A stretch of DNA of 64,000 nt from Nitrospirales bacterium (GCA_965223315.1 CBDCWD010000004.1:875759-939758), one strand, 5' to 3'. Counted from the stretch's first letter, positions 29,538 through 60,238 are shown. Translations and numbers: made by a program. Notes: a model not told the origin generated them from the sequence alone.

Positions 29538-29565
29538 TCAAGAACTCTTTTTGAACCGCCGAAAA
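29538..29565 (+). promoter_or_regulatory. Sigma28 (FliA)-type promoter candidate
   Basis: TCAAG-N15-GCCGAAAA upstream of the lipoprotein and MotB-like genes. Confidence 0.6.
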
Positions 29566-29651
29566 GAGACTCGAACAGGTCTCATCAAATTGCTGACTAC
29601 AGAGATTGATACAGCATCTTTGGCGTAAATACGTATCGTGTCGGAGGTGAA

Positions 29652-29933
29652 ATGCCCGAAAGCAATCCTATGAAGAACCGTCAACACCGGCAGAATTGTG
29701 TGTTCGTTCTTGTTATGTGTGCCATCGTCAGTTGTGGATGTAGCCAAGTTGTGACTGTCTATTGGTCAAAACCTGGAGCAGGTAATGCTGAATTACAACG
29801 GGATAAAGATGAGTGCCAGTCCTTACAACGGGCTGTTGGACTCGCTGAAAGCCGAATAGAAAAATGTCTTGTCGCAAAGGGATGGGAAAAAGTCCGGCAA
29901 GAGGAAGGACCTACGGGTTCCGATTCTGAATGA
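29652..29933 (+). CDS. Small hypothetical lipoprotein
   Basis: GGAGG RBS, hydrophobic signal ending SCGC, paired Cys (ECQ, KCL). Confidence 0.7.
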   Translation: MPESNPMKNRQHRQNCVFVLVMCAIVSCGCSQVVTVYWSKPGAGNAELQRDKDECQSLQRAVGLAESRIEKCLVAKGWEKVRQEEGPTGSDSE

Positions 29934-29994
29934 ATAAGGGATTAAGAAAAAGCATGAGAGGTCTGTGGTCAGATTCATGTAGAGGAGTCACGTT

Positions 29995-31143
29995 ATGAAC
30001 ACGACGAAATGTATAGGTGCCCTGGTCCTTATTGTATGGATGTTTGGGGGGTGTGTGAGCCAACAGGCTCATGAACGGGCTATGGAAGAATTGGAAATGG
30101 CCAGCCAAAGTTCGGCTCAAGAAGTAGAGCGGTTGCAACGTATTGTGGAAGAACAGCAGTCCCAAGTCGTTCAACTGGAGGAGAATACGCAAGAGCTGAA
30201 GCGGGAGGTAGAAACGAAAGAGCAAGCCGTGGTCCAACTCCAGGAAGAAAATGTGGATTTAGTGGATGCTGTCAAAGTTCAAGAACAAGAAAAAGAACAG
30301 CAACTGGAAGCGGTGAAAGCCGAGTTGGAGAAACTCTATTCCGAGATTGCAGGCCTGCAATCGTTGACGGGGGTTGGTTCACTTTCCCGAGAGAGTCTGG
30401 AAGGGAGTGACCTGAATGATTTGGGTGGCATGGCTAGAGCCTTTCAGCAGGTTCGGGATAGCCTGAAGTCGCAAATTGACCATTTTTCTCAATTACAAAA
30501 GGACAATCAAGCCTTAGAGCAAAACCTTGTACAGCTAGAAGAACGTCTGAAAAATGTTGAGCGGCTGAAAAAGGAATTGGAAGAAGTGCGGGCAGCTCGT
30601 GCGGCGCAAGAGTCTCAATTGGCTCAAGTCAAACAAGAAGTCAATACTGTGAGCCGAGAAATTGATCGCATTACGCAAGCCTTAGAAGAAAAATTTGGGA
30701 AGAGTTTGGTCGTGACCCAACATCAGGATCGATTGGTCCTCACGATGCTAGGCCAAATCTTGTTTGCGTCGGGGGAAGCGCAACTCACCCCTCTGGGATT
30801 AGATATTATGAAACAGGTCGGGGAAGTTTTGGCCACCTTGCCAAATAAAAATATTCAAGTCGAAGGTCATACCGATAGCAACCCTATTTATGGACGACTC
30901 CAACAAAAATTTCCGACGAATTGGGAACTATCAACGGCTCGAGCGACGACCGTGCTTCGGTATTTGATTGAGCAAACCGGAATGGATCCTAAAGATTTTG
31001 CGGCGACTGGTTATGCTGATACACGGCCAGTGGTGGCGAACGACTCTGAAGAGGGGCGGGCTCAAAATCGACGTGTCGAAATTGTGCTATATCCAGAGAA
31101 AATTGTTGAAGAAAATAAAAAAATGGCAACGGTTGCCCAATAA
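29995..31143 (+). CDS. OmpA/MotB-domain lipoprotein with a long coiled coil
   Basis: FGGC lipobox, long heptad region, then VEGHTD, NWELSTARA, GYADTRP and NRRVEI peptidoglycan-binding motifs. Confidence 0.9.
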   Translation: MNTTKCIGALVLIVWMFGGCVSQQAHERAMEELEMASQSSAQEVERLQRIVEEQQSQVVQLEENTQELKREVETKEQAVVQLQEENVDLVDAVKVQEQEKEQQLEAVKAELEKLYSEIAGLQSLTGVGSLSRESLEGSDLNDLGGMARAFQQVRDSLKSQIDHFSQLQKDNQALEQNLVQLEERLKNVERLKKELEEVRAARAAQESQLAQVKQEVNTVSREIDRITQALEEKFGKSLVVTQHQDRLVLTMLGQILFASGEAQLTPLGLDIMKQVGEVLATLPNKNIQVEGHTDSNPIYGRLQQKFPTNWELSTARATTVLRYLIEQTGMDPKDFAATGYADTRPVVANDSEEGRAQNRRVEIVLYPEKIVEENKKMATVAQ

Positions 31144-31221
31144 CAGTGGCGGTTTCTGACGAAGTTTGCCCCTTGATATTTTCACTATTCAACACTCATA
31201 TAGTGCTAAATGCGCTTTTCA

Positions 31222-33489: not shown

Positions 33490-34827
33490 TTATGTGCTAC
33501 AGGATTCAGGAACCGGCGTCTGCGATGGGAAGTAGCTAATGATACGCCGGGGGTTCAAGCATTCTCGAATATGGGGAGCGAGGTCGCCTGGCCGGATCGC
33601 ATCCACTATCGTGAGTGAATGGTCTTCCTCTGCTAAGTTGAGCACAATGGGTTCCTTGGTGGAGGATTGTTCATCATAGACGAGGAGGATGGGCCGGAGC
33701 CGGTTGTCGAAGTTCACGCTCGTCACAATCCCAGTTTTTTGGTTGCTCAAGTTCACCAGGGACCCTGGAGGATAGACGCCTAATTGTTTGATCAAGGAGA
33801 CGATGGCCTCTTGCCAGAGTGTGTGGCGGCATTTCACATATAGATATGAGAGGGCTTCTGAAGGAATAAGAGAACGAGCGGGATCTTGGTGGTGACAGAG
33901 TTCATCATAGAGATCCACCACCATGACAATCTTGGCGAAGGGACCAATTTGCTCTTCTTTTTTCCCAAAAGGCTGGCCTGTTCCATTTAAGCGCTCATGG
34001 TGTTGTTGAATGACCTCAATGGCTTCATAAGGAAAATTGGGTATTTTCTCGGAAATTTCGACACCGTAGTTCACATGTGTGGCTAAAAAAGTGTTGTATT
34101 CACCTGGCCCCATGGTGCCTTTGCGTAACAGGGTTTCGACAGGGTATTTGAGTTCTCCCACGTCATGAAAAAATGCGCCTAAGGCCAACTTTTCACTCTC
34201 CTCCCGACTAAAGCCAAGATCAAGGCCGACCATAAGAGACAATGAAGAGACATTCGAAGCATGGAGGAAAAATTCGTCGCTGGGTTCATTGGAGCCCATC
34301 AGATTGAGTAGGGCTCTCAAATTATCAGGTCCGTCTAATAAGTTGAGAAGATTATCAACGATCTGTTTTGCTGTTCGGAGCCCGCGAGGCCGCCCGGCCA
34401 CGACGTCTTGTACGGCCTGTTTAGAATGCTGTAAAACCTCTTGAAACTGCGTTTCCACTTTCTGCAGGTGCTCTTGATAGACTTGAAACGCTTCATGCTG
34501 AGACACTTTCCGTTGCAGTGAGTCTTCAGTCAGGGTATCGGCTGCCGAGGGTGAGGAGGTGTCGATCTCGAGTTCAATATCTGCGTTGTCATTCGTGATG
34601 GTTTCCGACGATTCGAACGTTTCTGAATCCTGAGAATCTGGTGCGGGGTCTGAACGTTGGATATCAACAAACAACTTGACCTTTTTTAATCCTTTGAGTG
34701 TTTGAAGGTCTTTCGCTGTTTTGATTTTAAAGGAATTGGTCGAAAAGGGATGACTAAACCAAGATCCTTGAATCTTGATAAATAAACCGAGGCGAAGCGC
34801 AGAGGGCTCTAATGGAGTAAATGCCAT
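33490..34827 (-). CDS. DUF3391 plus HD-GYP domain protein (c-di-GMP phosphodiesterase family, variant motif)
   Basis: N-terminal L..G.FI...W.SHPF (DUF3391), FHDVG, HHERLNGTGQP and LGVYPPGSLV motifs. Confidence 0.88.
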   Translation of the reverse strand: MAFTPLEPSALRLGLFIKIQGSWFSHPFSTNSFKIKTAKDLQTLKGLKKVKLFVDIQRSDPAPDSQDSETFESSETITNDNADIELEIDTSSPSAADTLTEDSLQRKVSQHEAFQVYQEHLQKVETQFQEVLQHSKQAVQDVVAGRPRGLRTAKQIVDNLLNLLDGPDNLRALLNLMGSNEPSDEFFLHASNVSSLSLMVGLDLGFSREESEKLALGAFFHDVGELKYPVETLLRKGTMGPGEYNTFLATHVNYGVEISEKIPNFPYEAIEVIQQHHERLNGTGQPFGKKEEQIGPFAKIVMVVDLYDELCHHQDPARSLIPSEALSYLYVKCRHTLWQEAIVSLIKQLGVYPPGSLVNLSNQKTGIVTSVNFDNRLRPILLVYDEQSSTKEPIVLNLAEEDHSLTIVDAIRPGDLAPHIRECLNPRRIISYFPSQTPVPESCST

Positions 34828-35169: not shown

Positions 35170-35529
35170 CTAGGTTTCCACTGGCACCGAAGTGAGAGGT
35201 GCTTGGGTCGCCTGAGCCATAGAGCCATAGATTGGAATCAGTTTGTCCATATTGGTAAGTAAGAGAACATCCAAGGTTGTTCCCGGTGTACTGACGATGA
35301 TCATCTGAACTCCCATGGGAGTCAACTTTTTATGGGTAAGGGCCAGGAGGCCCAAGCCGGCACTATCGATGTGAGAAACCTGACTGACATCCAAAATGAT
35401 TTTTCGTGGTGTGGATTTTTCAGCTTGTGCCGTCGATCTCTGGAAATCATGGCGTGCTTGAAAGTCAAATCGTCCTGAAAGCTCCAAAAGCCATGTCTGT
35501 GAATCCATCTGTGTGGTGTTGATGATCAT
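35170..35529 (-). CDS. STAS-domain anti-sigma-factor antagonist
   Basis: LSGRFD and IILDVSQVSHIDSAGLG (phosphorylatable Ser intact). Confidence 0.9.
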   Translation of the reverse strand: MIINTTQMDSQTWLLELSGRFDFQARHDFQRSTAQAEKSTPRKIILDVSQVSHIDSAGLGLLALTHKKLTPMGVQMIIVSTPGTTLDVLLLTNMDKLIPIYGSMAQATQAPLTSVPVET

Positions 35530-35665: not shown

Positions 35666-36463
35666 TCAACCGCCGTCTTTAGGATTATCGGCCGGAGGCT
35701 GGGGGTCCTTAAGCGTTTCTGTGGTTTCACGTAGGACGTCTTCCAGATGTTTGCGAAGGCCAGCTAAGTCTTTTGACCGGAACGCACTCTTGGTCTTTTG
35801 GAGGATTTGAATGGTGTGATAGACCGATTCGCGCAGCCGGAAATAATCGGTCATCGATGGAGAGGAATCCTTGGGAAGGGATGTCTGCAGGAGGTGTTGT
35901 TGGGGGCCTACGCTTTCTGAAAGATTTGTTGTGCGCATTGCTTGGGTGGGAAGAGAAGAGTCAGACAACATCGATGGGGTACATTCTGGATCCAGTGGCA
36001 GTTGCAAGGTGCTTAGCGTCTCTTCCAGACGAGCGAGCCTCTGACTCCGCTGTTCGGCATCATACCGGGCTTGGCGGAGGGAGGTGAGTGTCTTGCGATG
36101 ATGGAGTCCTCGTTTGACCGCCTCCAGCAATACCTGAAAATCGACGGGTTTGATCATATACTCCAGAACATTCAAGTGCACCGATTCGACAGCGGTAGGG
36201 ACGGATGGATAGCCGGTAATGACAATGACAGGCAGTATCCTGGCCTGTTCTCGTAATGCCTGAACTTTCTTCATGACATGGTTGCCTGGCATGTTCAGGT
36301 CGGTGATAAGCAGGTCAAACTCAGAGCGCTTCAGAGCTTGTGAGAGTTGGTGGGCATCACCCACGCCGTGACATTCATATCCCTCTTCTTCCAACAGGTC
36401 CTTTGTGGCCTCCAAGAAGGTGTCTTCATCATCGGCGATCAGAATGGTTCCTTGAGCAGTCAT
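35666..36463 (-). CDS. Response regulator (REC plus uncharacterised C-terminal region)
   Basis: ILIADDE, LLITDLNMP and YMIKP REC motifs. Confidence 0.88.
   Translation of the reverse strand: MTAQGTILIADDEDTFLEATKDLLEEEGYECHGVGDAHQLSQALKRSEFDLLITDLNMPGNHVMKKVQALREQARILPVIVITGYPSVPTAVESVHLNVLEYMIKPVDFQVLLEAVKRGLHHRKTLTSLRQARYDAEQRSQRLARLEETLSTLQLPLDPECTPSMLSDSSLPTQAMRTTNLSESVGPQQHLLQTSLPKDSSPSMTDYFRLRESVYHTIQILQKTKSAFRSKDLAGLRKHLEDVLRETTETLKDPQPPADNPKDGG
35685..35712 (-). promoter_or_regulatory. Sigma28-type promoter candidate for the STAS gene
   Basis: Minus strand TTAAG-N15-GCCGATAA (perfect -10 box), inside the 3' end of the upstream gene. Confidence 0.65.
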
Positions 36464-38553
36464 GCAGGCGATCCTCCGTTTTCACTCGTTCCGGGTAGAG
36501 TAATGGTAAACCGAGAGCCCTGCCCGAGTGTGCTCGAGAAGTCGAGTGTTCCACCCATGGCCGCGACCAGGCTATGGCTAATAGACAAGCCTAGTCCCAT
36601 ACCACCATCTGTCTGCCCTTGCTTCGTTGAAAAGAATGGTTCAAAGATATGCGACGCGATGTCTGGCGAGATGCCCTGGCCATGGTCAATGACATGGATC
36701 GTGATCGTATCGGATTCCGTATCGGTGATGACCTCAATAGTATCATGCGGCTGCGATGTGTCGATAGCGTTTTGGAGCAAGTTACAAAGTACTTGAATCA
36801 TTTCGTTTCTGGGTGCCCGGCACAATAAGGGATGCTGGATATTGGCCACGATTTCAACTCCGTGCTTTGAGGAAGGGCGTTGCATAATGTCAATGGCATT
36901 CTGAATGGGTATCCGAACATCGAGTGTCGACGGAACAGGACTGCTTGGGCGGTAAAGTTGATAGAGGCGTGCCGTAATCTGCGAAATGCGTTCGATGCAG
37001 TCCTCGACTTTGGCCATATACCGGTAGTGCGGATGTTTATGAGGAATGGCTCGCTTCAGAAGCACCAAAGATTGTGAAATGCTGGCAAGTGGATTATTAA
37101 TCTCATGTGCCACTCCGGCGGCTATTTGCGCTAATGCTGCCAATTTTTCGACCTGCATGCGCCGCTGTTCCAATTCTTGAATGCGCTGTGTGCGGTGCCG
37201 GATCGTCGCTTCCAATTCAACATTGTGCCTGCGGATGGTTTCCTGGGCTTCTTTTTCTGTGGAAATATCCTGAATGATTAAGGCGAGATAATCCGCCTCT
37301 CCAGAGGAATCTCTCACAAATTGGGCAGATAATTTTGCATAGAGAACTGTACGATCCTTTCGGATAAAGCGTGTTTCACACAAGACTCGTTCTATCGTTC
37401 CCGTGATGAGTTGTTGGAGGTGGTCGTGAATTGTCTGGCGGTCGTCTGAATGTATGAGGTCCGTCCATGATTGTTCCGCCAGTTCTTCTCGTGTATAGCC
37501 GAGCATGTCACAGAGGTAATCATTGACTTCTATCCATTGGTGTTGCGGAGAGGTGATAGCCATGCCGACCAGCCCGGCTTCAAAATAGGCGCGAAAACGT
37601 TTTTCACTGGCATAGAACGCCGCTTCTGCTTTCTTCATATCGGAAATATCAATGACGTTGGCCACACGGCAACGTACCTCGCCGCGAGGGTCTTTGATGT
37701 CGGAAATAGTGAGCAAGGCCGGGAATGTTGTCCCATCTTTACGGACATGAAGGGCTTCAAACGAATGAAGTCCATGTTCATGAATGAGACGAATATGTAG
37801 CGGGAGTTGTTTTTGAGATTCCGTGGCAAAAACTTGGGCAATCGACTTGCCTTGTAACTCTTCCACCGTGTATCCGTGCATGCGCGCGTATGCTTCATTG
37901 ACCATATCTAATGTTTGACTGTTGGCGCTTCCCACAGCCATGCCCCATTGGGTCTGGTGAAAAACGCTGGTCCATTGCTGGAGTTGAACCTGGGTTTTGT
38001 TCCAGTCGGTGATATCGTGGCCGGTACCAATGACCCCGGAAGGTTCTTGGGTTTCGTCGGGCGGGCGGTCAATGTTCCACAAGATATCGTGCCGTTGGCC
38101 CAATATGATTGTTGCCCAAATGACGCAGAGGGTCATTATTCGATTGACTATATGATCCCAGGACTCCTTCCCTTCCGGAAAAAGATAGAATCCTGCAATG
38201 GTCAATGCCGAGCAGCCTATAGCAGTCCATAGCGGGATGTGGGTTTGTCGGTGGCGAAGGCTGAGAAGGACAATAAGAACATAGGGGATCCCGCCGGCAA
38301 CTCCACGTGGAGCCATCAGGTCAATGATGAAGATAGTGCCAGCACTGACGATTAACAGCCAAGGATGTGACAGAGCCTGACTCTGGTGCAAGTCTTGGGA
38401 AGGGGGATTCACGGTGCCTGCCCATATGCTTGAGATGTGGGTAGCATTGTTTTGACGTGTTGGGAGAGAGAAGTGTAGCGAATTACATGATAACTGACAA
38501 AGGGGTCGTTGAAAAAATCCACCAGTGGCGTGCTGGCCATTTTCCCGTGTCAC
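36460..38553 (-). CDS. Membrane PAS-PAS sensor histidine kinase
   Basis: TM segments, two PAS/PAC domains, AHEINNPL and GGMGLGL. The start may be GTG 38412. Confidence 0.88.
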   Translation of the reverse strand: MTRENGQHATGGFFQRPLCQLSCNSLHFSLPTRQNNATHISSIWAGTVNPPSQDLHQSQALSHPWLLIVSAGTIFIIDLMAPRGVAGGIPYVLIVLLSLRHRQTHIPLWTAIGCSALTIAGFYLFPEGKESWDHIVNRIMTLCVIWATIILGQRHDILWNIDRPPDETQEPSGVIGTGHDITDWNKTQVQLQQWTSVFHQTQWGMAVGSANSQTLDMVNEAYARMHGYTVEELQGKSIAQVFATESQKQLPLHIRLIHEHGLHSFEALHVRKDGTTFPALLTISDIKDPRGEVRCRVANVIDISDMKKAEAAFYASEKRFRAYFEAGLVGMAITSPQHQWIEVNDYLCDMLGYTREELAEQSWTDLIHSDDRQTIHDHLQQLITGTIERVLCETRFIRKDRTVLYAKLSAQFVRDSSGEADYLALIIQDISTEKEAQETIRRHNVELEATIRHRTQRIQELEQRRMQVEKLAALAQIAAGVAHEINNPLASISQSLVLLKRAIPHKHPHYRYMAKVEDCIERISQITARLYQLYRPSSPVPSTLDVRIPIQNAIDIMQRPSSKHGVEIVANIQHPLLCRAPRNEMIQVLCNLLQNAIDTSQPHDTIEVITDTESDTITIHVIDHGQGISPDIASHIFEPFFSTKQGQTDGGMGLGLSISHSLVAAMGGTLDFSSTLGQGSRFTITLPGTSENGGSPA

Positions 38554-38582
38554 CGAATGGGAACGACAGATGTAAGGGAACG

Positions 38583-42907: not shown

Positions 42908-42912
42908 AGGTA

Positions 42913-43461: not shown

Positions 43462-43478
43462 ATTCAAACCCTGAGTCG

Positions 43479-45482: not shown

Positions 45483-45597
45483 GGAATCTTCCCTCTTAAA
45501 GTTGCCCAATACATCGCTGAACCTTTTTTTGTTTCCCAAAGTACTCTTCAGAGAAGACTTATGAAGGAGAATATAGTCCTAGGTTTTCCTTATCTTT

Positions 45598-49143: not shown

Positions 49144-49250
49144 GGTGCGTCTGGATTGCCTTGGTCTTGAGGTTTACCAATCTGTTTTGAATGAGAGCAT
49201 AAAATGATCGTTGATTGTTGGATATTCCTGCATTCAACATGGGGCCTTTT

Positions 49251-51551
49251 TCAACGGGCCCGTGTTGGAAGCCATCGTTGTAAGGCTTGGGCCAGGTCAT
49301 CCGCTCGAATGGGTTTAGGCAGATAGTCGTCCATTCCGGCCTGCAGGCATTTATCTCGATCCTCAGGCATAGCGTTGGCGGTCATGGCGATAATCGGAAG
49401 GTGGAAACAGTGAGGAGCACAAAGTAAGGAGTGAGAAGTTTGTGAAAGCTCGGTCTCTTTGGCCTCCCCATTCACTCCTAACTCCTGACTCTTGACTTCG
49501 GACTTGTCACGTTCTGTTTTCCGAATAGTCCTGGTAGCTTCATAGCCGTCCATGATGGGCATGTGACAGTCCATCAACACCAAGTCATAGGGGATCTTGA
49601 GACAGGCCTCGACGGCTTCCTGGCCATTTGCGGCCACGTCGGCTTTGTGTCCAAGACGCTCTATCATCATCACAGCCAATTGTTGGTTGACCTGGTGATC
49701 GTCGACGATCAACACTCTCTTGCGCCTTTTTTCAGACGACTCCAACGTGGCAAAACGGGTGATAACCGGAGCCTCTGGGTCTTTAAGCGTTTCTGGCAGG
49801 AGGCCCATCACAGTTTCTAGTGTGTGTTTGAGCACATTCTGGCGTATGGGTTTGGTCAGGTACCCCGAGAACCCAGCGGCCTTGGCTTCCCCAGCATCGC
49901 CTCGCTGGCCGAGAGAAGACAGGAGGACTAGACGAATGGCCGAGAGCTGCGAATCGTTTTTGATCGTTTGCGCCAGGGTCAGGCCGTCCATGCCCGGCAT
50001 AGTCCTATCCAGGACCGCGATATCGAATGGATCGTGTTGTTGAAAGGCAGTGTGAAGCAGGTGAAGGGCTTCAGCCGGGGTCGAAGCAGATGTACAGCGG
50101 ACTCCCCAATCTTTGGCATATTCCTCGAGCAGGTGCCGATTGACGGGATGATTGTCGACGCAGCACATCCGTAGGCCGTGAAGGGGCTTGGGGCTGAGTA
50201 TTATCCGGCTCTGGATGGGTTGTTTGAGAAATTCAGAAGTAAACCAAAACGTGCTCCCCTGGCCTTTCTGGCTGTCAACGCCGATTGTTCCTCCCATCAA
50301 TTCCACCAACTGCTTACATATGGCCAACCCCAGCCCTGTCCCGCCAAACTGACGGGTCGTGGAGCCGTCAGCTTGTTGAAATGGTTGAAAAAGCTTTTGT
50401 TGTACATCGGGATCAATTCCAATCCCTGAGTCTTGCACGGTCACGTTAATGAGGGCTTTCTCAGCGGTTTCTTCCTGGAGAGTGATGCGTATAATGACTT
50501 CGCCCGAAGGAGTGAATTTAACAGCATTTCCGACAAGATTGAGAAGAACCTGCCGAAACCGGCCAGGATCTCCTCGTAAGGCTGTGGGGACTCGGGCATC
50601 CACGCATCCAATCAACTCTAAATTCTTGCTCCCGGCTTTCTCCGCTAAGAGGTCGAGGGAATCCTCCATCGAGACACGAAGGTCGAAGTCAACCGTTTCG
50701 ACATCTAGTTTTCCTGCTTCGATTTTTGAGAAATCCAAAATATCATTGATAATGGTGAGTAGGGCTTCGCCGGAACTTCTGACGGTTTCAGCAAATTGGA
50801 ATTGTTCGGCTTTCAGATCCGTGTCCAATAACAGGCCGGTCATGCCGATAATGCCATTCATGGGGGTGCGAATTTCATGACTCATGGTGGCTAAAAATTC
50901 GCTTTTGGCCTTCGCGGCATGTTCGGCCGCTTCCTTTGCGTGATGCAGAGCGCGTTCGGCTTCTTTTCGTTGTGTAATATCCCGAATAAACGCGCTGAAG
51001 ATGGTGTTCCCGTCCACGGTGAAAGGATTGACGCAGATTTCAATAGGGAAGATGTCGCCATGCCTGTTCAGAGCCGACACTTCAAGGCGCTGATTGACCA
51101 TCGTACCTTTTCCTGTTCTGAGAAATTCTTTAAAGCCGTGATTGTGGGCCTCGCGAAAATCAGGAGGAATGATCTTTTCTGATAGGAGATGCCCCACGAC
51201 TTCCTCTTTTTCCCACCCAAATAGGGTTTCGGCTTGTGGATTCCAATCGATGATGATGCCAGCCGCATCCACGGAGATAATGGCATCCAAGGCATGGTCC
51301 ACGATCATCTTTGTCCGCTCTTGCTCGTTCCTGAGGCGCATTTCGCTTGTGTGTCGGAGGTCTTCGTAGAGTTGCGTCATCTCTTTCGAGGAGATTGCGA
51401 GAGATCGTTCGAGTAATTCACGCCCTTGATCAGCTTCAGTATAGGCGTTGCTAATGCGCTCGAGGAATCCAGGCCACGCTTCAGGTGTTAGCGGGACCGT
51501 GGGGTCAGAAGATCCGAAGCGTTTGAGCTGTCGTTTGAGCAAAGGATGCAT
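49251..51551 (-). CDS. Hybrid histidine kinase (PAS-HisKA-HATPase-REC-REC), FIST partner
   Basis: [12 protein letters not shown]-terminus typical of kinases downstream of FIST genes; H-box and two REC domains; no Hpt. Confidence 0.92.
49423..49508. repeat. Inverted heptamer tandem repeat inside the kinase CDS
   Basis: AGTAAGG AGTGAGA AGTTTGT ... ACTCCTA ACTCCTG ACTCTTG ACTTCGG ACTTGTC. Confidence 0.7.
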
Positions 51552-51557
51552 GTTTCG

Positions 51558-52691
51558 TTATTGCTCGGAAATAGTCGTCAGAGTCATGGTTTGATTATGA
51601 AGTTCACATCGTCCATTTGTGTAGGGTGACAATTCCCCATAGGAATAAAATCCAATTTGCTGAGTCCCTGACGGGAATACGTCCAATGTGGCTTCGACTT
51701 CTTCCTCGGCACGCTCGCCCAGAACGAGGCGTCGTCCGACGCAGGTAATGGCAATGGCGAGTGTATGCTGTGGATCCTTAGGTTGAGTCAGAAGCGCTGC
51801 CTCCGAAGCGCCGGTGATGAGCCGGTCAAAATTGCCTCGCATAAGTTGGACGAGCGAATCTTGAGGAATATTCCCGGCAAAGGTCATCGATTGTTCGTCT
51901 TCATTCACGGCTAAGATAGTGCGGACAAGATAATCATCGCCCGTTCCGTTTTGTTTTAATGCTAAGGGAAAGAGAAGCGCGGTAGCCGGAAGCCCACTGG
52001 CTCGCTCGCCGAGGTATTCTTTATACAGTTCAAGCGCAGGTTTGCCGTCTAACTCATACAGTATGTTCCCGTCGGATCGTGTCACCCGTCGTTCTGGCCC
52101 TAAATAATCCCAGCCACCCTTAGAGCCGTGGGACAAACGAATGTGGTCACCATAGAACCCCACGGCCGTGATCATGCCTCCCATGGGTGACGAATTGCTA
52201 ATGACCCAAGTTTGTTTGAAGCGATCTCCGTCTCCGGCTAATCCACCAGTCACAATGACAGATTCCGGAAGGATGGTATTGAGGCCCTGGATGAGTTCGC
52301 TGCCATTGACTTGTAGTCCATCAGAGAGCACGAGGATTCCTCGAAGATCAGGCCGCAAAAGGTCTTGGGCGATTTGTTGCCCCACTTGACAGGATTGTGA
52401 GGCATCGGAAATTTCGACGGTGGCGGTCCGGACCGTGGTCGACTCGAATTGAAGGATGCCGCCCACAACACTCTGGTCTCGAATTTCACTGCCGAATACC
52501 TCACCCGAGGTCGAGCAACCGATCACCGGAATACCTGAAAATGTATGACAAATCTCTTGGATACGATTCGGTGACTCCAAGAAGCTTGATGCACCAAACA
52601 AGATGACGAGGGACTTTTGAGGGTCTTGGAGAAAATCGGGTCGAGTCACCGGTGGGCTGGAATAATCAAGACAAAATGTTTGAACGTTCAT
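51558..52691 (-). CDS. FIST-domain signal transduction protein (FIST N plus FIST C; NosP family)
   Basis: GCSTSGE, LVLSDGL, GGLAGD, LYELDGKPAL, TCVGRR and GFYSYGE motifs. Confidence 0.92.
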   Translation of the reverse strand: MNVQTFCLDYSSPPVTRPDFLQDPQKSLVILFGASSFLESPNRIQEICHTFSGIPVIGCSTSGEVFGSEIRDQSVVGGILQFESTTVRTATVEISDASQSCQVGQQIAQDLLRPDLRGILVLSDGLQVNGSELIQGLNTILPESVIVTGGLAGDGDRFKQTWVISNSSPMGGMITAVGFYGDHIRLSHGSKGGWDYLGPERRVTRSDGNILYELDGKPALELYKEYLGERASGLPATALLFPLALKQNGTGDDYLVRTILAVNEDEQSMTFAGNIPQDSLVQLMRGNFDRLITGASEAALLTQPKDPQHTLAIAITCVGRRLVLGERAEEEVEATLDVFPSGTQQIGFYSYGELSPYTNGRCELHNQTMTLTTISEQ

Positions 52692-52817: not shown

Positions 52818-54185
52818 CTAAAACTTAGATCCGGAGGAAGAAGCGGATAGTGAAGGGGTGGAATTTTGGGAGGAGGTTGATTGTGTGAGGCGAGAGAATA
52901 ATTTTTTTCTAATGGAGAAATACTCTGGATTGCCTTCCGAAACTTGAAGAAACTTCGCATAATATTGATTGGCTAACCGGCCATTTCCTAGCTGTTCATA
53001 GGCATACCCCATATTCAGGTGAATATGAGGCAGGTCGGGTTTTAGCAATTCTGCTTGCCGTAATTCATGGATGGCTAACTGATAGTTGCCGCGTTGTTGA
53101 GCGACCAAGGCCCGTTGGATCCATAGTTGCGGCACCTTGTCATTTCTGGCTAATCCACTGAGGAAAAATTGATCGGCTTCTTCCACGTCTCCTTTGCCCA
53201 ACAGCGCGGTTCCCATCCAAAACCAAGGCTGCCAATTAACAGGCGGTTCATGAAACATCGGCCTCAGCAGTACTGAGGCTTCTTGATATTGTCCAATCTG
53301 AATCAGCTGTCGGGCATTGTGTAACCGTTGAGCTGGTGATAGGGGTTGTCGAGGAGGTACAGAGGTTTTCAGCTGTTTCTTTTCTACATGCGCTGGTAGG
53401 GGACTAGGTTCTCCGGTTTTAGTCGACTCCTTGGTTAGTAGGCTCGTCATGATCAATTCATCAGGCTGGACAATTTCTTCCTCTTCTAAGGGAACCGTCA
53501 ACGAGTCGGCTGACTCTGAGTCGTTCATGTTGTCAGATATGGCTGGGAACGCAGGAGAAATAGCTGTGGAGGTTTCAGGTGTGAGTGTCGTCGTGACGGT
53601 TGAAAGCTCCTCTGCTTCTGATTCAATCGAAGTTGAATCAGGTTCTGGCTCTGTGTCGATGGTCTGGTCTTCTATTGCAGGTGTGTTCTGATTCTCCGGC
53701 TTTGTGTCGGCCACGGCGATCTCTGGAGTTTCTGGGTTTGTTGACACTTCTGAAGCGGGCGCCTTTTGCTCGTCCTGCGGCAGGGCTGATGATACTGCCA
53801 CGTCCGTCATTTCAGCAGTCTGTGGAATTGTCACAGATTCGAGTTCTTGAGCCACCGGATTTTCTGAGGGAAGATCGACAGGCATAGGTTCCTGGGGAGG
53901 AGGGTCGGGAAGGGAAACGCCGCTATTGATGCTGGCTTGTGTGTGCGGAGCCAGGCCAAAGTCCATGTGCCAACCAATCCAAAATGCACCAATGGCCAGT
54001 CCGCCAAGGGCGAGAGTGATTCCCCCAGTAATGACCCAAAATTTAATTTGGGAAGGCTTTTGATGATGTCCTGTTCCTTCTCCTTTGGGAAAGGTTGGAC
54101 GGGTTTGCGGGATTTCTGGTGATTCAGCGGATCCCTGTTGTGATTGGGCCTGGAGGCGTTTGAGTGTGTCAGCGATGATACTCAT
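52818..54185 (-). CDS. MshN/ExeB-like protein (N-terminal anchor, Pro/acidic linker, TPRs)
   Basis: MSIIADTLKR start like ExeB/MshN, one TM, low-complexity linker, C-terminal TPRs; follows the ExeA-like gene. Confidence 0.7.
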   Translation of the reverse strand: MSIIADTLKRLQAQSQQGSAESPEIPQTRPTFPKGEGTGHHQKPSQIKFWVITGGITLALGGLAIGAFWIGWHMDFGLAPHTQASINSGVSLPDPPPQEPMPVDLPSENPVAQELESVTIPQTAEMTDVAVSSALPQDEQKAPASEVSTNPETPEIAVADTKPENQNTPAIEDQTIDTEPEPDSTSIESEAEELSTVTTTLTPETSTAISPAFPAISDNMNDSESADSLTVPLEEEEIVQPDELIMTSLLTKESTKTGEPSPLPAHVEKKQLKTSVPPRQPLSPAQRLHNARQLIQIGQYQEASVLLRPMFHEPPVNWQPWFWMGTALLGKGDVEEADQFFLSGLARNDKVPQLWIQRALVAQQRGNYQLAIHELRQAELLKPDLPHIHLNMGYAYEQLGNGRLANQYYAKFLQVSEGNPEYFSIRKKLFSRLTQSTSSQNSTPSLSASSSGSKF

Positions 54186-54196
54186 TGTACGAATGC

Positions 54197-54268
54197 AGTA
54201 AGGAGTTAGGAGTGAGTAGTGAAAACATAAGAACTAATTTCTTTTTTACTGCTGACTTCTTACTTCTT
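54197..54268. repeat. Inverted heptamer tandem repeat (intergenic)
   Basis: AGTAAGG AGTTAGG AGTGAGT AGTGAAA ... ACTGCTG ACTTCTT ACTTCTT. Confidence 0.65.
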
Positions 54269-54274
54269 CCCTTT

Positions 54275-55099
54275 TCACTTTAGAAATTCCTGGGCGGCTT
54301 TCCAAACCAGGAAATGGGTAATCACGGGTTGTCTTTTGGCATAGGCTCCGAGTAAGGCGCGATCACACAGTTGATTAATGCGCCGTGGGACACCATGGGA
54401 TAAGAAATATATGAGCCCTGGAACGCCGGTCTGGAGTCGCAGCCGGTGAGTGCGCTCAGCTTTCTGAAGGCGATGCTCGATGTAGGCTCGCGTTTCTCTG
54501 TATCCAAATGGCTTCAGACAATATTTGACGCTGATGCGTTGGCGCAGCGGCCGGAAGGCCCGGGCGGCTAACTTTTGCTCAAGTTCCGGTTGTCCAACAA
54601 GCAGCAGGCACATCAGCTTGTCTTTTTCGGTATCCAGGTTCGACAGAAGCCGCAGGCCTTCTAACACTTTCCCGCTCAACCGGTGAGCTTCATCGACCAA
54701 TACAACGACTCGTTCACCATCCTCAGCCAGCCGGAGCAGAAGTTTCGGCAATTCCCGTTGAAGGGCGCCAAGCGAGGAGTCTTCCGGAATGGTTCCCGTG
54801 AGATCTTCATAAATTGATGTGAGCAAATCCCCATAGGATTGGTCCGGATTAATCAGATAGGCAAAGCGGACGCCCTTAGGCGGATTGCGAAGGAGATGAC
54901 GGCACAAGAGCGTTTTTCCGAGCCCCACTTCGCCGGTCAACATCGTGAACCCTCCACTCGCGATGCCAAAACGCAGATGATGCAACGCTTCCATGTGATG
55001 ACTGCCTGGAAAAAAGAAGTCCGTGTCAGGAGTGAGTTGAAATGGCGGTTCCGTGAATCCCAGTTCTTCGTAACAAAGGCCCAGATCTAGAGTTGTCAT
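54275..55099 (-). CDS. ExeA/MshM-family AAA ATPase
   Basis: PFQLTPD, GEVGLGKT, VLVDEAH, LLVGQPEL and GVPRRINQLCDRALL motifs. Confidence 0.92.
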   Translation of the reverse strand: MTTLDLGLCYEELGFTEPPFQLTPDTDFFFPGSHHMEALHHLRFGIASGGFTMLTGEVGLGKTLLCRHLLRNPPKGVRFAYLINPDQSYGDLLTSIYEDLTGTIPEDSSLGALQRELPKLLLRLAEDGERVVVLVDEAHRLSGKVLEGLRLLSNLDTEKDKLMCLLLVGQPELEQKLAARAFRPLRQRISVKYCLKPFGYRETRAYIEHRLQKAERTHRLRLQTGVPGLIYFLSHGVPRRINQLCDRALLGAYAKRQPVITHFLVWKAAQEFLK

Positions 55100-55101
55100 A
55101 G

Positions 55102-56673
55102 TTACGATCCTACAATTTTGGGTGAGAGGAAAATGACCAGTTCACTTTTGGTTTTCACAGTGTACGTTCCTTTGAACAATCGGCCTAACAATGGGATATC
55201 ACCTAACAACGGCACGGATCGTTCCGTTTCGGATTCCTCTTCTTGAATAAGTCCGCCGATAATGACCATTTCCCCATCTTTGAGCCGAACGACTCCCGAG
55301 GATTGTTTAATGTCCAAAATTGGAGCATTCGATGTCTCAAGTGGCGAGAGGGCGATATCACGAAGACGGGAAATAATAGGCGTGACATCTAACATGATCC
55401 ATCCATCCTCGGAAATTTGCGGGGTGACGGATAAGACTAAACCAACCGTGACCGAATTGGCTTCTTCCGTCACGATATTGCCAGTTCCGGCTGTTCCCTG
55501 GGTAATGGTTTGTGTAAAAAATGGTTGATCGGTAGCCACCTTGATCAACGCGGGTTGATTGTTCAGCGTGACGACGCGGGGCTGAGAAATAACCTGGAGT
55601 TCCCCTTGTTCACGAAGTGCCTCTAAAATGCCGGCAAAATCTCCAGAGGAAAATGAAACCGTCGTGGTGGCGACTTTGGGAATTAGCCCTCCAAAGGGTG
55701 CGCCGATAATATTCGACAGAGAAAACGCGCCGGTATCCCCATCGAATTTGATCTCATTCCAGTTAATACCCAGACTGTAATTATCGTTTAAGTTGACTTC
55801 GTAAATTCTAGCCTCAATTTCTACCTGGCGATACAATGCTTGGTGGACTTTGTCGAGGAATTCTTCAATCTCGTGGACACGTTGGTACCAATCGGTCACG
55901 TGGATCGTCCCAGAAAGACGATTGGCCACCATGCGGCCATCTTGAGACATGAGTGTTTGAATTTGCCGTTCGAGTTCTTCCCAGAATTTGATTTCGTCTT
56001 GTTGATTGACTGTGATTTGTCCGGTTTCTTGCGATCCCCCGCCGCTGGAGGACCCTGAGCTCATTTTGGCCTGATTTTGGCCGGTGCCTCCCCGGACCAG
56101 GCGAATGTAATCCACGTTGAATAATGCCGTTTTAAATTGTTTCACTCTGATGAGGCCATCCTCTTCTTCCCAATAGTAGCCATGGGCTTCTAGTAGCGCA
56201 GACATCGCCCGTTCTAGCGGGAGGTCGTGAAAATCGACGGTGACGGTGCCGATGATTTCCGGACCTGCCACAATATTCAGCTGATTGCCTCTGGCAAACA
56301 GAGCTAGCGCGTCGATAAGCGGAAGGTCTTGCGCCCGGAATGAGTAGAGTGGGCCGAGAGTTGGAGCCGGAGCCGGAGGCATCTCTGAAACATTGCTGCT
56401 CAGCAACATGCGGTCTTCCAGAGAAAAATTAGCATGCGGTGCCTGCCGATGTACCGGAATAGGTTGCGGGTTTTTTGATACCCTGTTGAACGATTGAGAC
56501 GGTGCAGGTCTGACCTGGATGTCTGCGTCACGGTCGATAGTGGAACAACCTGCAATCGTGAAGATGTTGACGAGCACAAGAGAGAGACCTGCCCGTACGA
56601 TAGAACGCCCAAGGGTGTGCCCCAAAGCTGCCCCTGTCACGGAAAGTATGTGTGTGTGTGTTGGTTGCGGCAT
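55102..56673 (-). CDS. mshL: MshL-type secretin
   Basis: Lipobox IAGC, STN and secretin N domains, QVEIEARIYEV, SQPRVVTLNNQPA, VPLLGDIPLLGRLF. Confidence 0.88.
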   Translation of the reverse strand: MPQPTHTHILSVTGAALGHTLGRSIVRAGLSLVLVNIFTIAGCSTIDRDADIQVRPAPSQSFNRVSKNPQPIPVHRQAPHANFSLEDRMLLSSNVSEMPPAPAPTLGPLYSFRAQDLPLIDALALFARGNQLNIVAGPEIIGTVTVDFHDLPLERAMSALLEAHGYYWEEEDGLIRVKQFKTALFNVDYIRLVRGGTGQNQAKMSSGSSSGGGSQETGQITVNQQDEIKFWEELERQIQTLMSQDGRMVANRLSGTIHVTDWYQRVHEIEEFLDKVHQALYRQVEIEARIYEVNLNDNYSLGINWNEIKFDGDTGAFSLSNIIGAPFGGLIPKVATTTVSFSSGDFAGILEALREQGELQVISQPRVVTLNNQPALIKVATDQPFFTQTITQGTAGTGNIVTEEANSVTVGLVLSVTPQISEDGWIMLDVTPIISRLRDIALSPLETSNAPILDIKQSSGVVRLKDGEMVIIGGLIQEEESETERSVPLLGDIPLLGRLFKGTYTVKTKSELVIFLSPKIVGS

Positions 56674-56689
56674 AGGTGGTCGCGGTTTT

Positions 56690-57217
56690 CTACGAGGTTG
56701 CCAGTGTTTTAAATGTGAGTAAGTGTTTCTTCCCCCGCCGTTTTAGCCATACCCCTTCAAGTTCGATCGCAACGACGTGATAGCCATCAATCATCTCTCC
56801 TTCATACACGACGCTCCGGTTAATCACCGCGCTGCGTTCCTGGTTGTCCAGCGCAATAGCTTTGAGTTCAAAATGCTGAAGCGCCTGAGATTTTTTCTCT
56901 TTTGGCAGGAGAGCAACTGTTGATGATTCACCGGCTCGAGCCTTGGCCTGAGACAAAACGGGTGCCGGCGCAAACGGGTCCCGTTGAGGATTCTGTATCC
57001 ATTGGATGGCTTCAGCCTCATGCTTGTGGAGTGAGGGTGTCACAGCGGCCTGAGTTTCTCCAAGGAAGGGCGCCGCGGCATCCATCAACACAGGAGGAAT
57101 AAAATCTGTACTCGGCCCTACCATATTGTTGTAGACCGCAACGCCAGCAACGGCGCATAGTCCTAAGACCACAACTGGGTTTTTTAAAGCTCGACTGAAT
57201 GTTGAGTTTTCATCCAT
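56690..57217 (-). CDS. MshK/GspC-like pilus accessory protein
   Basis: TM anchor, RDPF motif, L.AI....SAVIN...VYEGE C-domain; operon position. Confidence 0.6.
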   Translation of the reverse strand: MDENSTFSRALKNPVVVLGLCAVAGVAVYNNMVGPSTDFIPPVLMDAAAPFLGETQAAVTPSLHKHEAEAIQWIQNPQRDPFAPAPVLSQAKARAGESSTVALLPKEKKSQALQHFELKAIALDNQERSAVINRSVVYEGEMIDGYHVVAIELEGVWLKRRGKKHLLTFKTLATS

Positions 57218-57771
57218 ACCACGAGTCCAATTCGTAATTCTGTTGCTTTTTTCCCGTCCCCCATCATTGTCATTTCTTGAAGATCAATGCGGGCTCCCGA
57301 TTGTTCCAACACTTTCAAAAATTTCAGATAGGATCCATACCCACTGGCGTCCCCTTGAGGACTCACCGTGAGTTCAATGGGAACCAGGTTGATGCCTTGT
57401 AACGATGATGCTGATTGTTTGTCTTTCAGGATCCTATAGTCTGTCCGAAGGGCAAATTGGCTCCCATGTTCTTGAAGGTTCTGGGCCCAAGTTGCTAATT
57501 GAGTAAAATTTTGAATCAGTCGTTGATCAGCCTGAGCCACATCTGTCGGCAAGGATTCCGGGTGCGTGTCCTGATACTGACGGCGGAGCCGAGAGACTTG
57601 ACGTTCCAAATCCTGGATTGTCTGCAAGGAATCCTGGCTCTGTTGAATGGCTAAGAGATGCTCTATTGAGATCCAACCAACCACAATAATGCTGCCAACC
57701 AGCAGAAGAACCATGCCAAGGGTTCTGACATCCGGCCATGTGAATGTTGTGTTTTCCCTCCAACTGGTCAT
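57184..57771 (-). CDS. MshJ/PilO-like inner-membrane protein
   Basis: One TM plus coiled coil and a ferredoxin-like tail (GSYLKFLKVLE). Start set to 57771 (ATGA overlap). Confidence 0.6.
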   Translation of the reverse strand: MTSWRENTTFTWPDVRTLGMVLLLVGSIIVVGWISIEHLLAIQQSQDSLQTIQDLERQVSRLRRQYQDTHPESLPTDVAQADQRLIQNFTQLATWAQNLQEHGSQFALRTDYRILKDKQSASSLQGINLVPIELTVSPQGDASGYGSYLKFLKVLEQSGARIDLQEMTMMGDGKKATELRIGLVVWMKTQHSVEL

Positions 57772-59258
57772 GAGAAGTTTCCTTGCAAGGTCCAACGATA
57801 CAGTGTTTGGCCATGTTCTCCTGTGGTAGGAGCATTGGATTGTGTTAGAAGCTGGTCTCGCCAATTCTCATCTATGGTGACGTGATACGGTCCTTTTTCA
57901 AGGTCCTGCGCTAGTTGCTCGACAAGCGCCAAAGTTGAGGAAAGATTGGCTGAAGTATGGCCCGCTAATTCCACATTCCAGAAACCTTCAGTTTTTTTCA
58001 CTGAGGCCTTATGCAGGACGATCTGAGGAGGAACGATCTTCCCCAAGTAACTTAGCAACGTGCCTTCCAGCATGGGCGTTGTATTGTGCGTTAAGGTTTG
58101 CACCCATTGCCGTTGAGTGCGTACAGCCACGAGTTGGCTCTGCCAATGACGGTGGTCTTGGGCAAGCGCATTGACTTGAGCGGTGCGTTGTTGATGAATA
58201 TCCTGATTCTTCATCAGATAACCTTTGATGGCCCCAGTGGTTCCAATGCCGGCCGCGAGAAAGACGACAATGACGGCAGCTGCGGCATTGACCAGCATCT
58301 TCTTCATTGGGGCGCGACGGACATGTTGCGGCGTAAAATTTGTTGGAAGATTGGTTGGAAGCGTCGCACCAATCCAGAGCCAATATTTCCAATCCGGACT
58401 GACTGGACACGGAAGTATCGGCGTCACAATGTGGGGTTGTATTTCCTCAAGGGTCAGTCGTTCATCATCGCCTAAAAACCAAACTTGAGGGATGGGCAAA
58501 TTGGTTTGTTGGTTAATAAACATGATCGTCCGGTTGACTTCCGTGGCGAGGCGTTCTCCCAGAGGCACCCAATCTTGAACTGGAGCCAAATGTCGGGTTA
58601 AGAGTGGGGTGCCGTCTTCCCCTCCGGCGGCAAACGTCACCTTTCCATCCAACATCGTGATCAGGATGGTGGCTTCACCTTGTTCTACAGACAGAGAACT
58701 GAGCTGACTTTCCGATAAAGCGGACAGAGGGGCTAATTGTTGAAGGTAGAGGCCTAAATCCTCACATATCTGAACGATTTCAGCCACAAAACTTTGTGGC
58801 CACACCTCAAGGTGGATACATTGTTTCTGTCTGGCTTGTATGCCGGGATAATGGCACCAGGCTACCGGACCGTCCCAGGTCTTGACCCGTTGGGCTTTGC
58901 GGTCGAGGATACTCAGAAGGTCGGGGTGAGACATGGGAGGGAGTTGAAGCATGAGGGTCATAAACCGCTGGTCTTCCACGAGGATCGCGATATGGGTCCC
59001 TGGAAATTCTGTTCTCTTAATTGCTTCAGCAATGGCCTGCCGGAGTATTTCGGGTTTCCGGATGACGCCCGGCCGGTCCCAGGCTTTGTGAATAGAATCA
59101 TTAATGATGGAAAGGGCTTTGAAGCGGCCATTGATAAGGGTCACACTCAACACGGTGACCTGTTTGCGAAACATACTCTTCCCTGAATTTTCAGAAAATT
59201 TCTTAGCAATTTTCTGAAAACCTTCTTTCGAAAAACCTGTGGGAAATGAAAATGCCAT
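57768..59258 (-). CDS. MshI/PilM-PilN-like assembly protein
   Basis: Cytoplasmic actin-like region, one TM, periplasmic coiled coil and PilN-like end; start uncertain. Confidence 0.6.
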   Translation of the reverse strand: MAFSFPTGFSKEGFQKIAKKFSENSGKSMFRKQVTVLSVTLINGRFKALSIINDSIHKAWDRPGVIRKPEILRQAIAEAIKRTEFPGTHIAILVEDQRFMTLMLQLPPMSHPDLLSILDRKAQRVKTWDGPVAWCHYPGIQARQKQCIHLEVWPQSFVAEIVQICEDLGLYLQQLAPLSALSESQLSSLSVEQGEATILITMLDGKVTFAAGGEDGTPLLTRHLAPVQDWVPLGERLATEVNRTIMFINQQTNLPIPQVWFLGDDERLTLEEIQPHIVTPILPCPVSPDWKYWLWIGATLPTNLPTNFTPQHVRRAPMKKMLVNAAAAVIVVFLAAGIGTTGAIKGYLMKNQDIHQQRTAQVNALAQDHRHWQSQLVAVRTQRQWVQTLTHNTTPMLEGTLLSYLGKIVPPQIVLHKASVKKTEGFWNVELAGHTSANLSSTLALVEQLAQDLEKGPYHVTIDENWRDQLLTQSNAPTTGEHGQTLYRWTLQGNFS

Positions 59259-59272
59259 GCTTCTCAAGACTC

Positions 59273-60133
59273 CTACGGGGCGTAACATCCGCTACTAATG
59301 ACCCGCCATTGCGAGCCATTGGGACAATCGGGATCAAATTGATAGCCGGCCTCGGCCGTCATGGTAAATTGTATCTCTGGTGTCCCAAATGTATTGGCTT
59401 CATCAAGGCCGATGGGTGTTCCGGTAAGGTGATAGCGAATAGCAGGAGCAAGGGTGCCGCCACCGGAGTTGGTGGGCGCTCCGTCGACGGAGTAGCTGCC
59501 TCCGGCTCCATCGGCCGATAAACTGACCAGATGAAATAAATGGCCCACATGTCCACGGAATATCTTGACGTCATGTAGCCCTGTTTCGTCCGTATTCCAC
59601 CAACCCTCGAATTCGGCATCGGTCGTAATGGAAGGATTAAGATTCTGAGACAAGCCGGAAATGAGCAGGTATCGTGCATTGGCCAATTGAGCGGGTGCTA
59701 AACCCGCCGTATTGGTAAAGCCGGCAAGGTTTGGCTGCAGAAAAAAGTATCGTGAAAAACCATTGGGATTATTTGAGAGTTGATTCGCAGACATCTGGAC
59801 ATAATCGGGACTTAAGGCCGCAAGGTTTGCAGGGAAGGACCGAGTTTGGCGGACAAACAGTTCAATCCCCTTGGCAATATTTTCCAGTTGTTTGGTCTCC
59901 GCATCTCGTCGGGTGTTTCGTAGTTGATTGATGATGCTTGGCGCCACGAAACTGGCCAAAATCGCCAAGATTGCTAGGACTCCGATTAATTCTACAAGGG
60001 TAAAGCCAGAGGAAAACGTGAGGCGTGAAGCCTGAGGTGCCGAGGATACGAAAGCTGGCTGTGTGAGTGCAGAGATTGTAAGTCTTGCACCGGTGATGCT
60101 TCTGTATGGAAGTTTATGTAACATTTCTCTCAC
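59273..60133 (-). CDS. Large type IV pilin / pseudopilin
   Basis: Class III signal SSG/FTLVELIGVLAILAILAS with Glu at +5. Confidence 0.9.
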   Translation of the reverse strand: MREMLHKLPYRSITGARLTISALTQPAFVSSAPQASRLTFSSGFTLVELIGVLAILAILASFVAPSIINQLRNTRRDAETKQLENIAKGIELFVRQTRSFPANLAALSPDYVQMSANQLSNNPNGFSRYFFLQPNLAGFTNTAGLAPAQLANARYLLISGLSQNLNPSITTDAEFEGWWNTDETGLHDVKIFRGHVGHLFHLVSLSADGAGGSYSVDGAPTNSGGGTLAPAIRYHLTGTPIGLDEANTFGTPEIQFTMTAEAGYQFDPDCPNGSQWRVISSGCYAP

Positions 60134-60210
60134 TCTTCTTTGGCCCTCTAGCTAAAATGCACATACATAGATGGTCCTGGCATATTTTGCCGGGTAGACC
60201 TCTCTTGTAT

Positions 60211-60238
60211 GTGTCGGAAAAACGATAGCCAATCTTTA
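60211..60238 (-). promoter_or_regulatory. Sigma28-type promoter candidate upstream of the pilin
   Basis: Minus strand TAAAG-N15-TCCGACAC. Confidence 0.5.

Follow-up and report, generated by a model that had tools for sequence, protein, structure and literature searches.

Sigma factors of the sigma-28 family (FliA/SigD/WhiG) recognize promoters of the consensus TAAAGTTT-N11-GCCGATAA. To our knowledge, the combination of a CCGA-containing -10 block with a TAAAG-like -35 block is specific to this family; other classes use GGGTAT-like (SigB/SigF), GGAAC/CGT (extracytoplasmic function sigma factors), and GG-N10-GC (sigma-54) elements. In FliA/FlgM systems, the sigma factor becomes active after completion of the hook-basal body, and FliA of Escherichia coli controls pdeH/yhjH, the gene of a phosphodiesterase of cyclic dimeric GMP (c-di-GMP). 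The present analysis concerns seven sites, P1 to P7, that we propose to be promoters of this class. They lie in a 64-kb stretch of DNA from a marine-type Nitrospirales bacterium (GCA_965223315.1, CBDCWD010000004.1:875759-939758; G+C ~49%), referred to below as the window, and precede genes for c-di-GMP signaling and for a pilus of the mannose-sensitive hemagglutinin (MSHA) type. Nitrospira-type nitrite oxidizers are key nitrifiers whose gene regulation is almost uncharted, and a literature search combining Nitrospira with fliA turned up no work on their sigma-28 promoters.

Similar to the FliA class 3 regulon of E. coli and Salmonella, the Nitrospirales sites have a two-block architecture with a CCGA core and a TAAAG-like -35 block, and both sets of genes include a c-di-GMP phosphodiesterase and MotB-type proteins. 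In contrast, T(C/T)AAG prevails as the Nitrospirales -35 block and N12 as the spacer, and A or C usually takes the place of the T of GATAA. The members also differ from those of the E. coli FliA regulon: HD-GYP instead of EAL proteins, hybrid kinases, a FIST protein, a TonB-dependent receptor with a YfiR-like protein, a STAS protein, and a type IV pilus, with no flagellar gene under the motif in the loci examined. The locus is a well supported extension of a known regulatory design to an understudied phylum, and what is notable about it is the membership of the pilus operon and the run of six consecutive units with one promoter type.

All seven sites named by an earlier, sequence-only reading are present at the positions it gave. 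Each is oriented with the first gene of a unit and lies 58-155 nucleotides (nt) upstream of it, the distance being that between the last base of the -10 block and the start codon. The sites are listed below; the scores come from a matrix built from orthologous sites with the window excluded (the relatives-only matrix), and protein lengths are in amino acids (aa).

P1, 29538..29566, plus strand: TCAAGAAC-N12-GCCGAAAAG, 86 nt before an open reading frame (ORF) of 93 aa, 16.5 bits
P2, 34909..34937, minus strand: TTAATTTT-N12-TCCGAAAAG, 82 nt before the DUF3391-HD-GYP gene, 21.0 bits
P3, 35684..35712, minus strand: TTAAGGAC-N12-GCCGATAAT, 155 nt before the STAS gene, within the 3' end of the 265-aa response-regulator ORF
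P4, 39819..39846, minus strand: TCAAGTTT-N11-TCCGAAAAT, 127 nt before the response-regulator (RR) HD-GYP gene, 23.0 bits, the top score of the window
P5, 45597..45625, minus strand: TTAAGTCT-N12-ACCGACAAA, 58 nt before the TonB-dependent-receptor gene, 22.9 bits
P6, 52778..52806, minus strand: TACAGAAT-N12-TCCGAATAA, with the weakest -35 block, 87 nt before the FIST gene, 12.0 bits
P7, 60210..60238, minus strand: TAAAGATT-N12-TCCGACACA, 77 nt before the prepilin gene, 19.9 bits

The units headed by these sites are those named at the outset, namely two with HD-GYP genes, the STAS gene, the TonB-dependent receptor with a YfiR-like protein and a kinase, FIST with kinases, the prepilin with MSHA-type assembly genes, and an OmpA/MotB-like gene. 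Placement before a unit holds for all seven, although P3 is not intergenic: it falls within the 265-aa receiver gene, in its final 47 nt. P4 has fully canonical spacing and is the closest of the seven to the canonical sigma-28 form. The pattern originally given for the sites, T[ATC]AAG-N14-15-NCCGA[TAC]A[AC], fits P1, P3, P4, P5, and P7 exactly, whereas P2 (TTAATTTT-N12-TCCGAAAA, -35 TTAAT) and P6 (TACAGAAT-N12-TCCGAATA, -35 TACAG) deviate from it in the -35 block only. It has five matches on both strands of the window, all of them proposed sites, against an estimated chance expectation of ~0.3 for a pattern that had been fitted after the fact. No sigma-28-type site occurs in the first 28 kb of the window. 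Of the seven upstream regions, only that of the DUF3391-HD-GYP gene has a sigma-70-like consensus match, a single 9-of-12 one (35020-34992) inside a repeat element; the other six have none.

The sites were compared with related loci from a species-representative genome collection (labelled L001-L007, L081-L084, L094, and L164). The closest protein matches in it are marine-type Nitrospirales metagenome-assembled genomes (MAGs) with largely collinear gene order, and amino-acid identity to their proteins is 79-91% for the receiver-HD-GYP protein and 75-83% for FIST. Locus L164 (OZ245016.1), which surfaced via the STAS protein query and is not among the matches listed for the RR-HD-GYP query, is the closest relative among the matches listed; it is collinear with the window and its RR-HD-GYP protein is 91% identical. 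In the orthologous upstream regions of up to ten marine Nitrospirales genomes, both blocks and the spacer length are kept, while the spacer sequence and the flanks have diverged. Over the seven families, the mean identity between pairs rises from 0.35 in the 40 nt upstream to 0.82 in the -35 block, falls to ~0.44 over the final eight spacer positions, climbs again to 0.85 in the -10 block, and drops to 0.40 downstream. Identity at the anchor bases of the blocks is built into this comparison; the contrast with the flanks is not.

Orthologues of P1 read TCAAGTG(C/T)-N12-GCCGAGAAT in L003 and L004 and TCAAGAAT-N12-GCCGACAAG in L164. P2 is kept in L001, L003, L004, and L005, P4 in L001-L007, L083, and L164, and P5 in L001, L004, and L082. 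The orthologues of P6 in L081, L082, and L083 have the form TxCAG/TTTAG-N15-ACCGAAAA. P7 is kept in L003, L082, and L083, and L084 and L094 have a P7-like site immediately before the first pilus assembly gene. The distance from site to start codon in the relatives is 44-294 nt, and strong matches in Nitrospirales loci lie on the gene strand in 42 of 46 cases. P3 is kept with exact spacing in L001, L005, L006, and L164, though the C-terminal tail encoded there differs. Within this tail, K is without exception encoded by AAG and D by GAT, and the codon preceding the latter ends in CC in every case; the STAS promoter is under nucleotide-level constraint inside a coding tail with otherwise variable amino acids. 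Outside the training set, loci of the genus Nitrospira carry TCAAGTTT-N12-ACCGAAAAA (25.4 bits) before a sensor kinase gene upstream of FIST, and similar sites before a TonB-dependent-receptor gene and pilus assembly genes. In the RR-HD-GYP family, the motif is confined to Nitrospirales and perhaps two Chromatiales MAGs, and a universally sigma-28-driven family is thereby rejected.

A position weight matrix had been suggested as a check, and at the scale of the window its result agrees with the proposed set. The relatives-only matrix puts five of the proposed sites as the top five in 128 kb (both strands) and the remaining two within the top 13. At 18 bits or more, the window has 4 matches versus 0.13 in shuffles, and at 20 bits or more it has 3 versus 0. 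The consensus of 36 aligned sites (7 from the window and 29 orthologous) is T(C/T/A)AAG(T/A)TT-N11-12-(A/T/G)CCGA(A/C/T)AA. T1, A4, and CCGA are invariant among them, the spacer is N11-13, and 31 have C or T at the second -35 position. The tar, fliD, motA, and fliL promoters of E. coli are established FliA promoters and provide a positive control. On three flagellar regions of E. coli K-12, the Nitrospirales-derived matrix finds tar (TAAAGTTT-N11-GCCGATAAC) and fliD at the top of their own loci, fliL (TCAAGACG-N11-GCCGATAAG) third, and motA (TAAACTTT-N11-GCCGATATT) fourth. Since the matrix recovers the window sites as well as FliA promoters of E. coli, the seven sites very likely represent a promoter class of the sigma-28 family (FliA/SigD/WhiG type). 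The class assignment made at first sight is borne out by the TxAAG -35 block, the CCGA -10 block, the fixed spacing, the conservation, and the E. coli control.

The seven promoters would place a contiguous signaling and surface block in one regulon, consisting of six minus-strand units and the plus-strand unit at 29.5 kb. Along the direction of transcription, the minus-strand order is unit 7, 6, 5, 4, 3, and 2, six consecutive units from 60.2 to 33.5 kb. The units, numbered as their promoters, are the following.

Unit 1, 29652..31143, plus strand: a 93-aa protein of unknown function and a 382-aa coiled-coil protein with an OmpA/MotB-like peptidoglycan-binding C-terminus (Pfam OmpA 1.4e-19)
Unit 2, 33490..34827, minus strand: a DUF3391-HD-GYP protein of 445 aa, a putative c-di-GMP phosphodiesterase (Pfam HD_5 1.7e-20, DUF3391 6.1e-18)
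Unit 3, 35170..35529, minus strand: a STAS-domain anti-sigma-factor antagonist of 119 aa (Pfam STAS 3.5e-18; TIGR00377 60.3 bits, cut-off 53.45)
Unit 4, 35666..39692, minus strand: a receiver-HD-GYP protein of 369 aa, a PAS histidine kinase of 697 aa, and a receiver protein of 265 aa (Pfam)
Unit 5, 39878..45539, minus strand: a TonB-dependent receptor of 686 aa, a YfiR/HmsC-like DUF4154 protein of 192 aa, and a CHASE8-HAMP hybrid histidine kinase with Hpt of 1009 aa (Pfam)
Unit 6, 45775..52691, minus strand: a FIST sensor protein of 377 aa, a PAS hybrid kinase of 766 aa, and a PAS-GAF-PAS hybrid kinase with Hpt of 1122 aa (Pfam, ORF map)
Unit 7, 52818..60133, minus strand: a prepilin-type protein, assembly proteins of 506, 226, and 175 aa, an MshL-like secretin, an MshM-like AAA_22 ATPase, and an MshN-like TPR protein (Pfam Secretin, AAA_22, TPR; NCBIfam)

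The C-terminal half (~150 aa) of the 265-aa response regulator (35666-36463) has no family match even at E=1, and the 107-nt gap before the last gene of unit 6 is without the motif.

Within such a regulon, the active sigma factor would lead to the two HD-GYP phosphodiesterases and to low c-di-GMP, by which swimming would be favored. The four sensor kinases, the FIST sensor, and the module of TonB-dependent receptor and YfiR-like protein would bring environmental input into c-di-GMP signaling, and the STAS switch protein may exert feedback on an anti-sigma factor or on a phosphodiesterase. The MotB-like peptidoglycan-binding protein would also fall within the coupled regulon. The MSHA-type pilus would serve surface contact by the swimming cell, and its co-expression with motility genes would, by analogy, suit surface landing as in Vibrio cholerae. 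A regulon of this kind would tie HD-GYP phosphodiesterases, sensor kinases, a STAS switch, and an MSHA-type pilus together. Moreover, a conserved and recognizable promoter class would allow a first mapping of how biofilm-forming nitrifiers regulate the change between motile and attached states, and the promoters are testable in the cultured relative Nitrospira marina.

The most likely sigma factor to read the promoters is this bacterium's own flagellar FliA, with a probability that we put at roughly 0.6; flagellar-stage timing of the expression of the island is likewise likely. RR-HD-GYP homologues adjoin fliI in a Nitrospinota MAG (L008) and flhB-flhA-fliA in a Porticoccus MAG (L057), and they share loci with che genes in four gammaproteobacterial MAGs (L056, L041, L054, and L040). 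The supplement of a study on N. marina contains fliA ('sigma 28 factor'), flgM ('anti-sigma-28'), fleN, flhF, motAB, and a complete flagellar gene set (PMC8115632), and flagellar genes are present in most Nitrospira genomes (PMC5767232).

Several points weigh against control by FliA. A crude a-priori matrix of the E. coli consensus puts most single sites only at about the 95th percentile of random 320-nt segments, and because single sites are borderline against it, the case for the promoter class rests on conservation and not on match quality. Of the 36 aligned sites, 27 have an N12 spacer instead of the canonical N11, and only 7 keep the canonical T behind CCGA; the base at this position is gene-family-specific (always T before STAS, C before the pilin, and A before FIST). 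Weak promoters could account for the two deviations, as could a paralogous sigma factor whose preference is slightly different. Neither the 64-kb window nor any of about ten related Nitrospirales loci contains a flagellar or chemotaxis gene, and the motif was never seen with flagellar genes there. Correspondingly, tblastn of E. coli FliA/C/D/S, FlhA/B, CheA/B/R/W/Y, Tar, MotA/B, and FliF/G/I/M/N/P/Q/R against the fetched loci finds flagellar or che genes in non-Nitrospirales loci only. Finally, a FIST protein, whose orthology to that of the window is presumed only, is seen in proteomes of N. marina whereas flagellar and pilus proteins are not; the products of its flagellar genes and of its gspF-pilin-MshK-MshL-MshM cluster went undetected (PMC8115632).

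A pattern search for the motif before flagellin genes, which imposed the motif and for which ~70 chance matches are expected across the collection, gives TCAAG-N14-16-CCGA 150-180 nt upstream of the flagellin pattern RIN.A.DDAAG. Among the matches listed (L170-L249) are many Actinomycetota, Bdellovibrionota, Fibrobacterota, and Comamonadaceae, the Actinomycetota including Solirubrobacter, Conexibacter, Dactylosporangium, and Nocardioides. A -35 block of the TCAAG form is thus found before flagellin genes of several phyla among the genomes listed; no Nitrospirales are among the matches listed for TCAAG...CCGA joined to this flagellin pattern.

Among other explanations, the one that survives best has the promoters read by a second, non-flagellar paralogue of the sigma-28 family (WhiG-like), which would run a c-di-GMP and surface program unlinked to flagellar assembly. 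Most sites have a spacer of N12 and no canonical T behind CCGA, which leaves room for such a paralogue. A STAS antagonist inside the regulon and the lack of any flagellar gene linked to an examined locus also fit it. On the other hand, no such paralogue was encountered in this lineage, P4 before the RR-HD-GYP gene combines fully canonical spacing with the TCAAGTTT -35 block, and genuine FliA promoters of E. coli are picked up by the matrix. In addition, an Rfam scan of the long leaders and the window gives no riboswitch match, the c-di-GMP riboswitch included. On balance we consider a non-flagellar paralogue unlikely. A more specific form of the idea is more doubtful still: a dedicated paralogue with the signature N12/CCGA(A/C)A would run the island, and a c-di-GMP loop would set a piliated, surface-exploring versus a sessile state independent of flagellar assembly. 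Low c-di-GMP would then switch the sigma factor on, more phosphodiesterase would be made, and c-di-GMP would stay low; the loop would close because the regulon includes two HD-GYP phosphodiesterases and the STAS switch.

It is quite improbable that the two-block element is a transcription-factor binding site or a promoter of another sigma class that merely resembles sigma-28. Conservation by itself does not name the protein that binds. However, the fixed spacing of 11-12 nt, the free spacer sequence, the strict orientation, and the distances to the gene in the window and in the relatives are typical of promoters, and the combination of CCGA with a TAAAG-like block is, as far as we know, peculiar to sigma-28, whose known E. 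coli promoters the matrix finds. Chance matches to a degenerate pattern fitted after the fact are effectively refuted by the conservation data, for although the pattern was derived from the sites themselves and single sites are borderline against the a-priori matrix, all seven are kept at orthologous positions in diverged genomes and a matrix made without the window ranks the proposed sites on top.

The pilus operon is the unusual and least expected member of the sigma-28-type regulon, and its presence there fits the idea that swimming cells need pili to land on surfaces. Its prepilin has a G|FTLVE motif in translation and scores above the cut-off of TIGR02532 (the NCBIfam model of prepilin N-terminal methylation). 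Together with this methylation-motif prepilin, the unit has the other parts of an MSHA-type pilus locus, namely the secretin, the MshM-like ATPase, the MshN-like TPR protein, and small assembly proteins. The proteins of 506, 226, and 175 aa have no significant family match, so their assignment to MshI/J/K rests on position and on the annotation of N. marina, where the equivalent cluster is annotated as MSHA-type (PMC8115632).

The MSHA pilus of V. cholerae (mshI-N), which is used with the flagellum in surface landing, shares with unit 7 the MshL-, MshM-, MshN-, and MshK-like proteins and the prepilin. Unlike in V. cholerae, the gene order in the window is different, the pilin gene heads the assembly operon, and a conserved sigma-28-type promoter stands before it; we know of no description of the V. 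cholerae msh genes as FliA-dependent. In Synechocystis sp. PCC 6803, the group 3 sigma factor SigF controls pilA1. This resembles the pilus operon of the window in that an alternative, sigma-28-related sigma factor drives a type IV pilin gene, but the promoter motif of SigF differs and the organism is without a flagellum.

The leader just 3' of P7 (60165-60205, minus strand) contains a conserved stretch, GAGAGGT.TA.CCCGGCA.AAT, which is found in four genomes (orthologous in L003, L082, and L083), while the upstream flanks are unalignable. It has no Rfam match and may be an operator or an RNA element.

The STAS protein and the DUF3391-HD-GYP phosphodiesterase are probably functional partners, because in L164 their genes are adjacent and presumably co-transcribed, with no promoter of its own for the second: P2 is absent there, and the DUF3391-HD-GYP gene starts 35 nt after STAS. 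In the window, a dispersed-repeat insertion lies between the two genes and the conserved P2 serves the second. The repeat unit is 21-22 nt long (about ATCATCCTGAGCCTATCGAAGG), with several copies at 34953-35093 and again at 13765-13839, and the insertion is absent in L164. Contig depth over the repeat stretch in the source metagenomes is ~10-15 times that of the surroundings, so the family has many copies. An origin of the seven sites from a repeat element is rejected, as their spacers differ and the nearby repeat family is a different 21-22-nt unit.

A STAS protein of Pseudomonas aeruginosa, in the HptB-HsbR-HsbA system, links FlgM/FliA with a diguanylate cyclase. The window is alike in having a small STAS antagonist in a c-di-GMP and two-component context, with STAS downstream of a kinase and a receiver protein and, in L164, the gene of a c-di-GMP enzyme directly after it. 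Unlike in P. aeruginosa, the partner is an HD-GYP phosphodiesterase and not a GGDEF cyclase, and domain searches find no PP2C phosphatase or RsbW-type kinase domain in the window or in the genes neighboring STAS. Because both domains are missing, the arrangement is not a member of the HsbA system. It does not form a partner-switching module of the RsbV/RsbW/RsbU or HsbA/HsbR type either, though the STAS protein passes TIGR00377. Binding of the window STAS to FlgM would be a conjecture drawn from this analogy.

In unit 1, the 382-aa protein matches the NCBIfam models MotD/MotS/MotB, every one below its cut-off. With a long coiled coil and no score reaching an NCBIfam MotB cut-off, it is not a typical stator protein. 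The equivalent gene is named 'motB' in Candidatus Nitrospira alkalitolerans (PMC7784846), whose locus with a Na+/H+ antiporter, bicA, and 'motB' corresponds to 15634-31143 of the window. This part of the window combines genes of SulP/BicA-like transporters and a series of genes for Mrp/Nuo-type antiporter subunits with the OmpA/MotB-like gene.

Four sequencing runs with the window sequence (99% of sampled words) are DNA metagenomes of flat depth. Two estuary metatranscriptomes (X13 and X14) contain a 95-97% relative of L003, in which fragmentary Logan contigs cover the RR-HD-GYP and DUF3391-HD-GYP genes and the pilus genes are little covered. One contig begins inside the RR-HD-GYP gene and none has an end at a promoter, though the ends of contigs do not fix where transcripts start. 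In the L003 locus, RNA contig depth is by far the highest (100-380, versus 5-30 for the signaling genes) at 13341-17342, between a hypothetical 140-aa gene and nhaB, a segment absent from the window. At 3907-7217, the window itself has a pair of genes for a CHASE3-PAS histidine kinase and an NtrC-type sigma-54 activator, upstream of priA.

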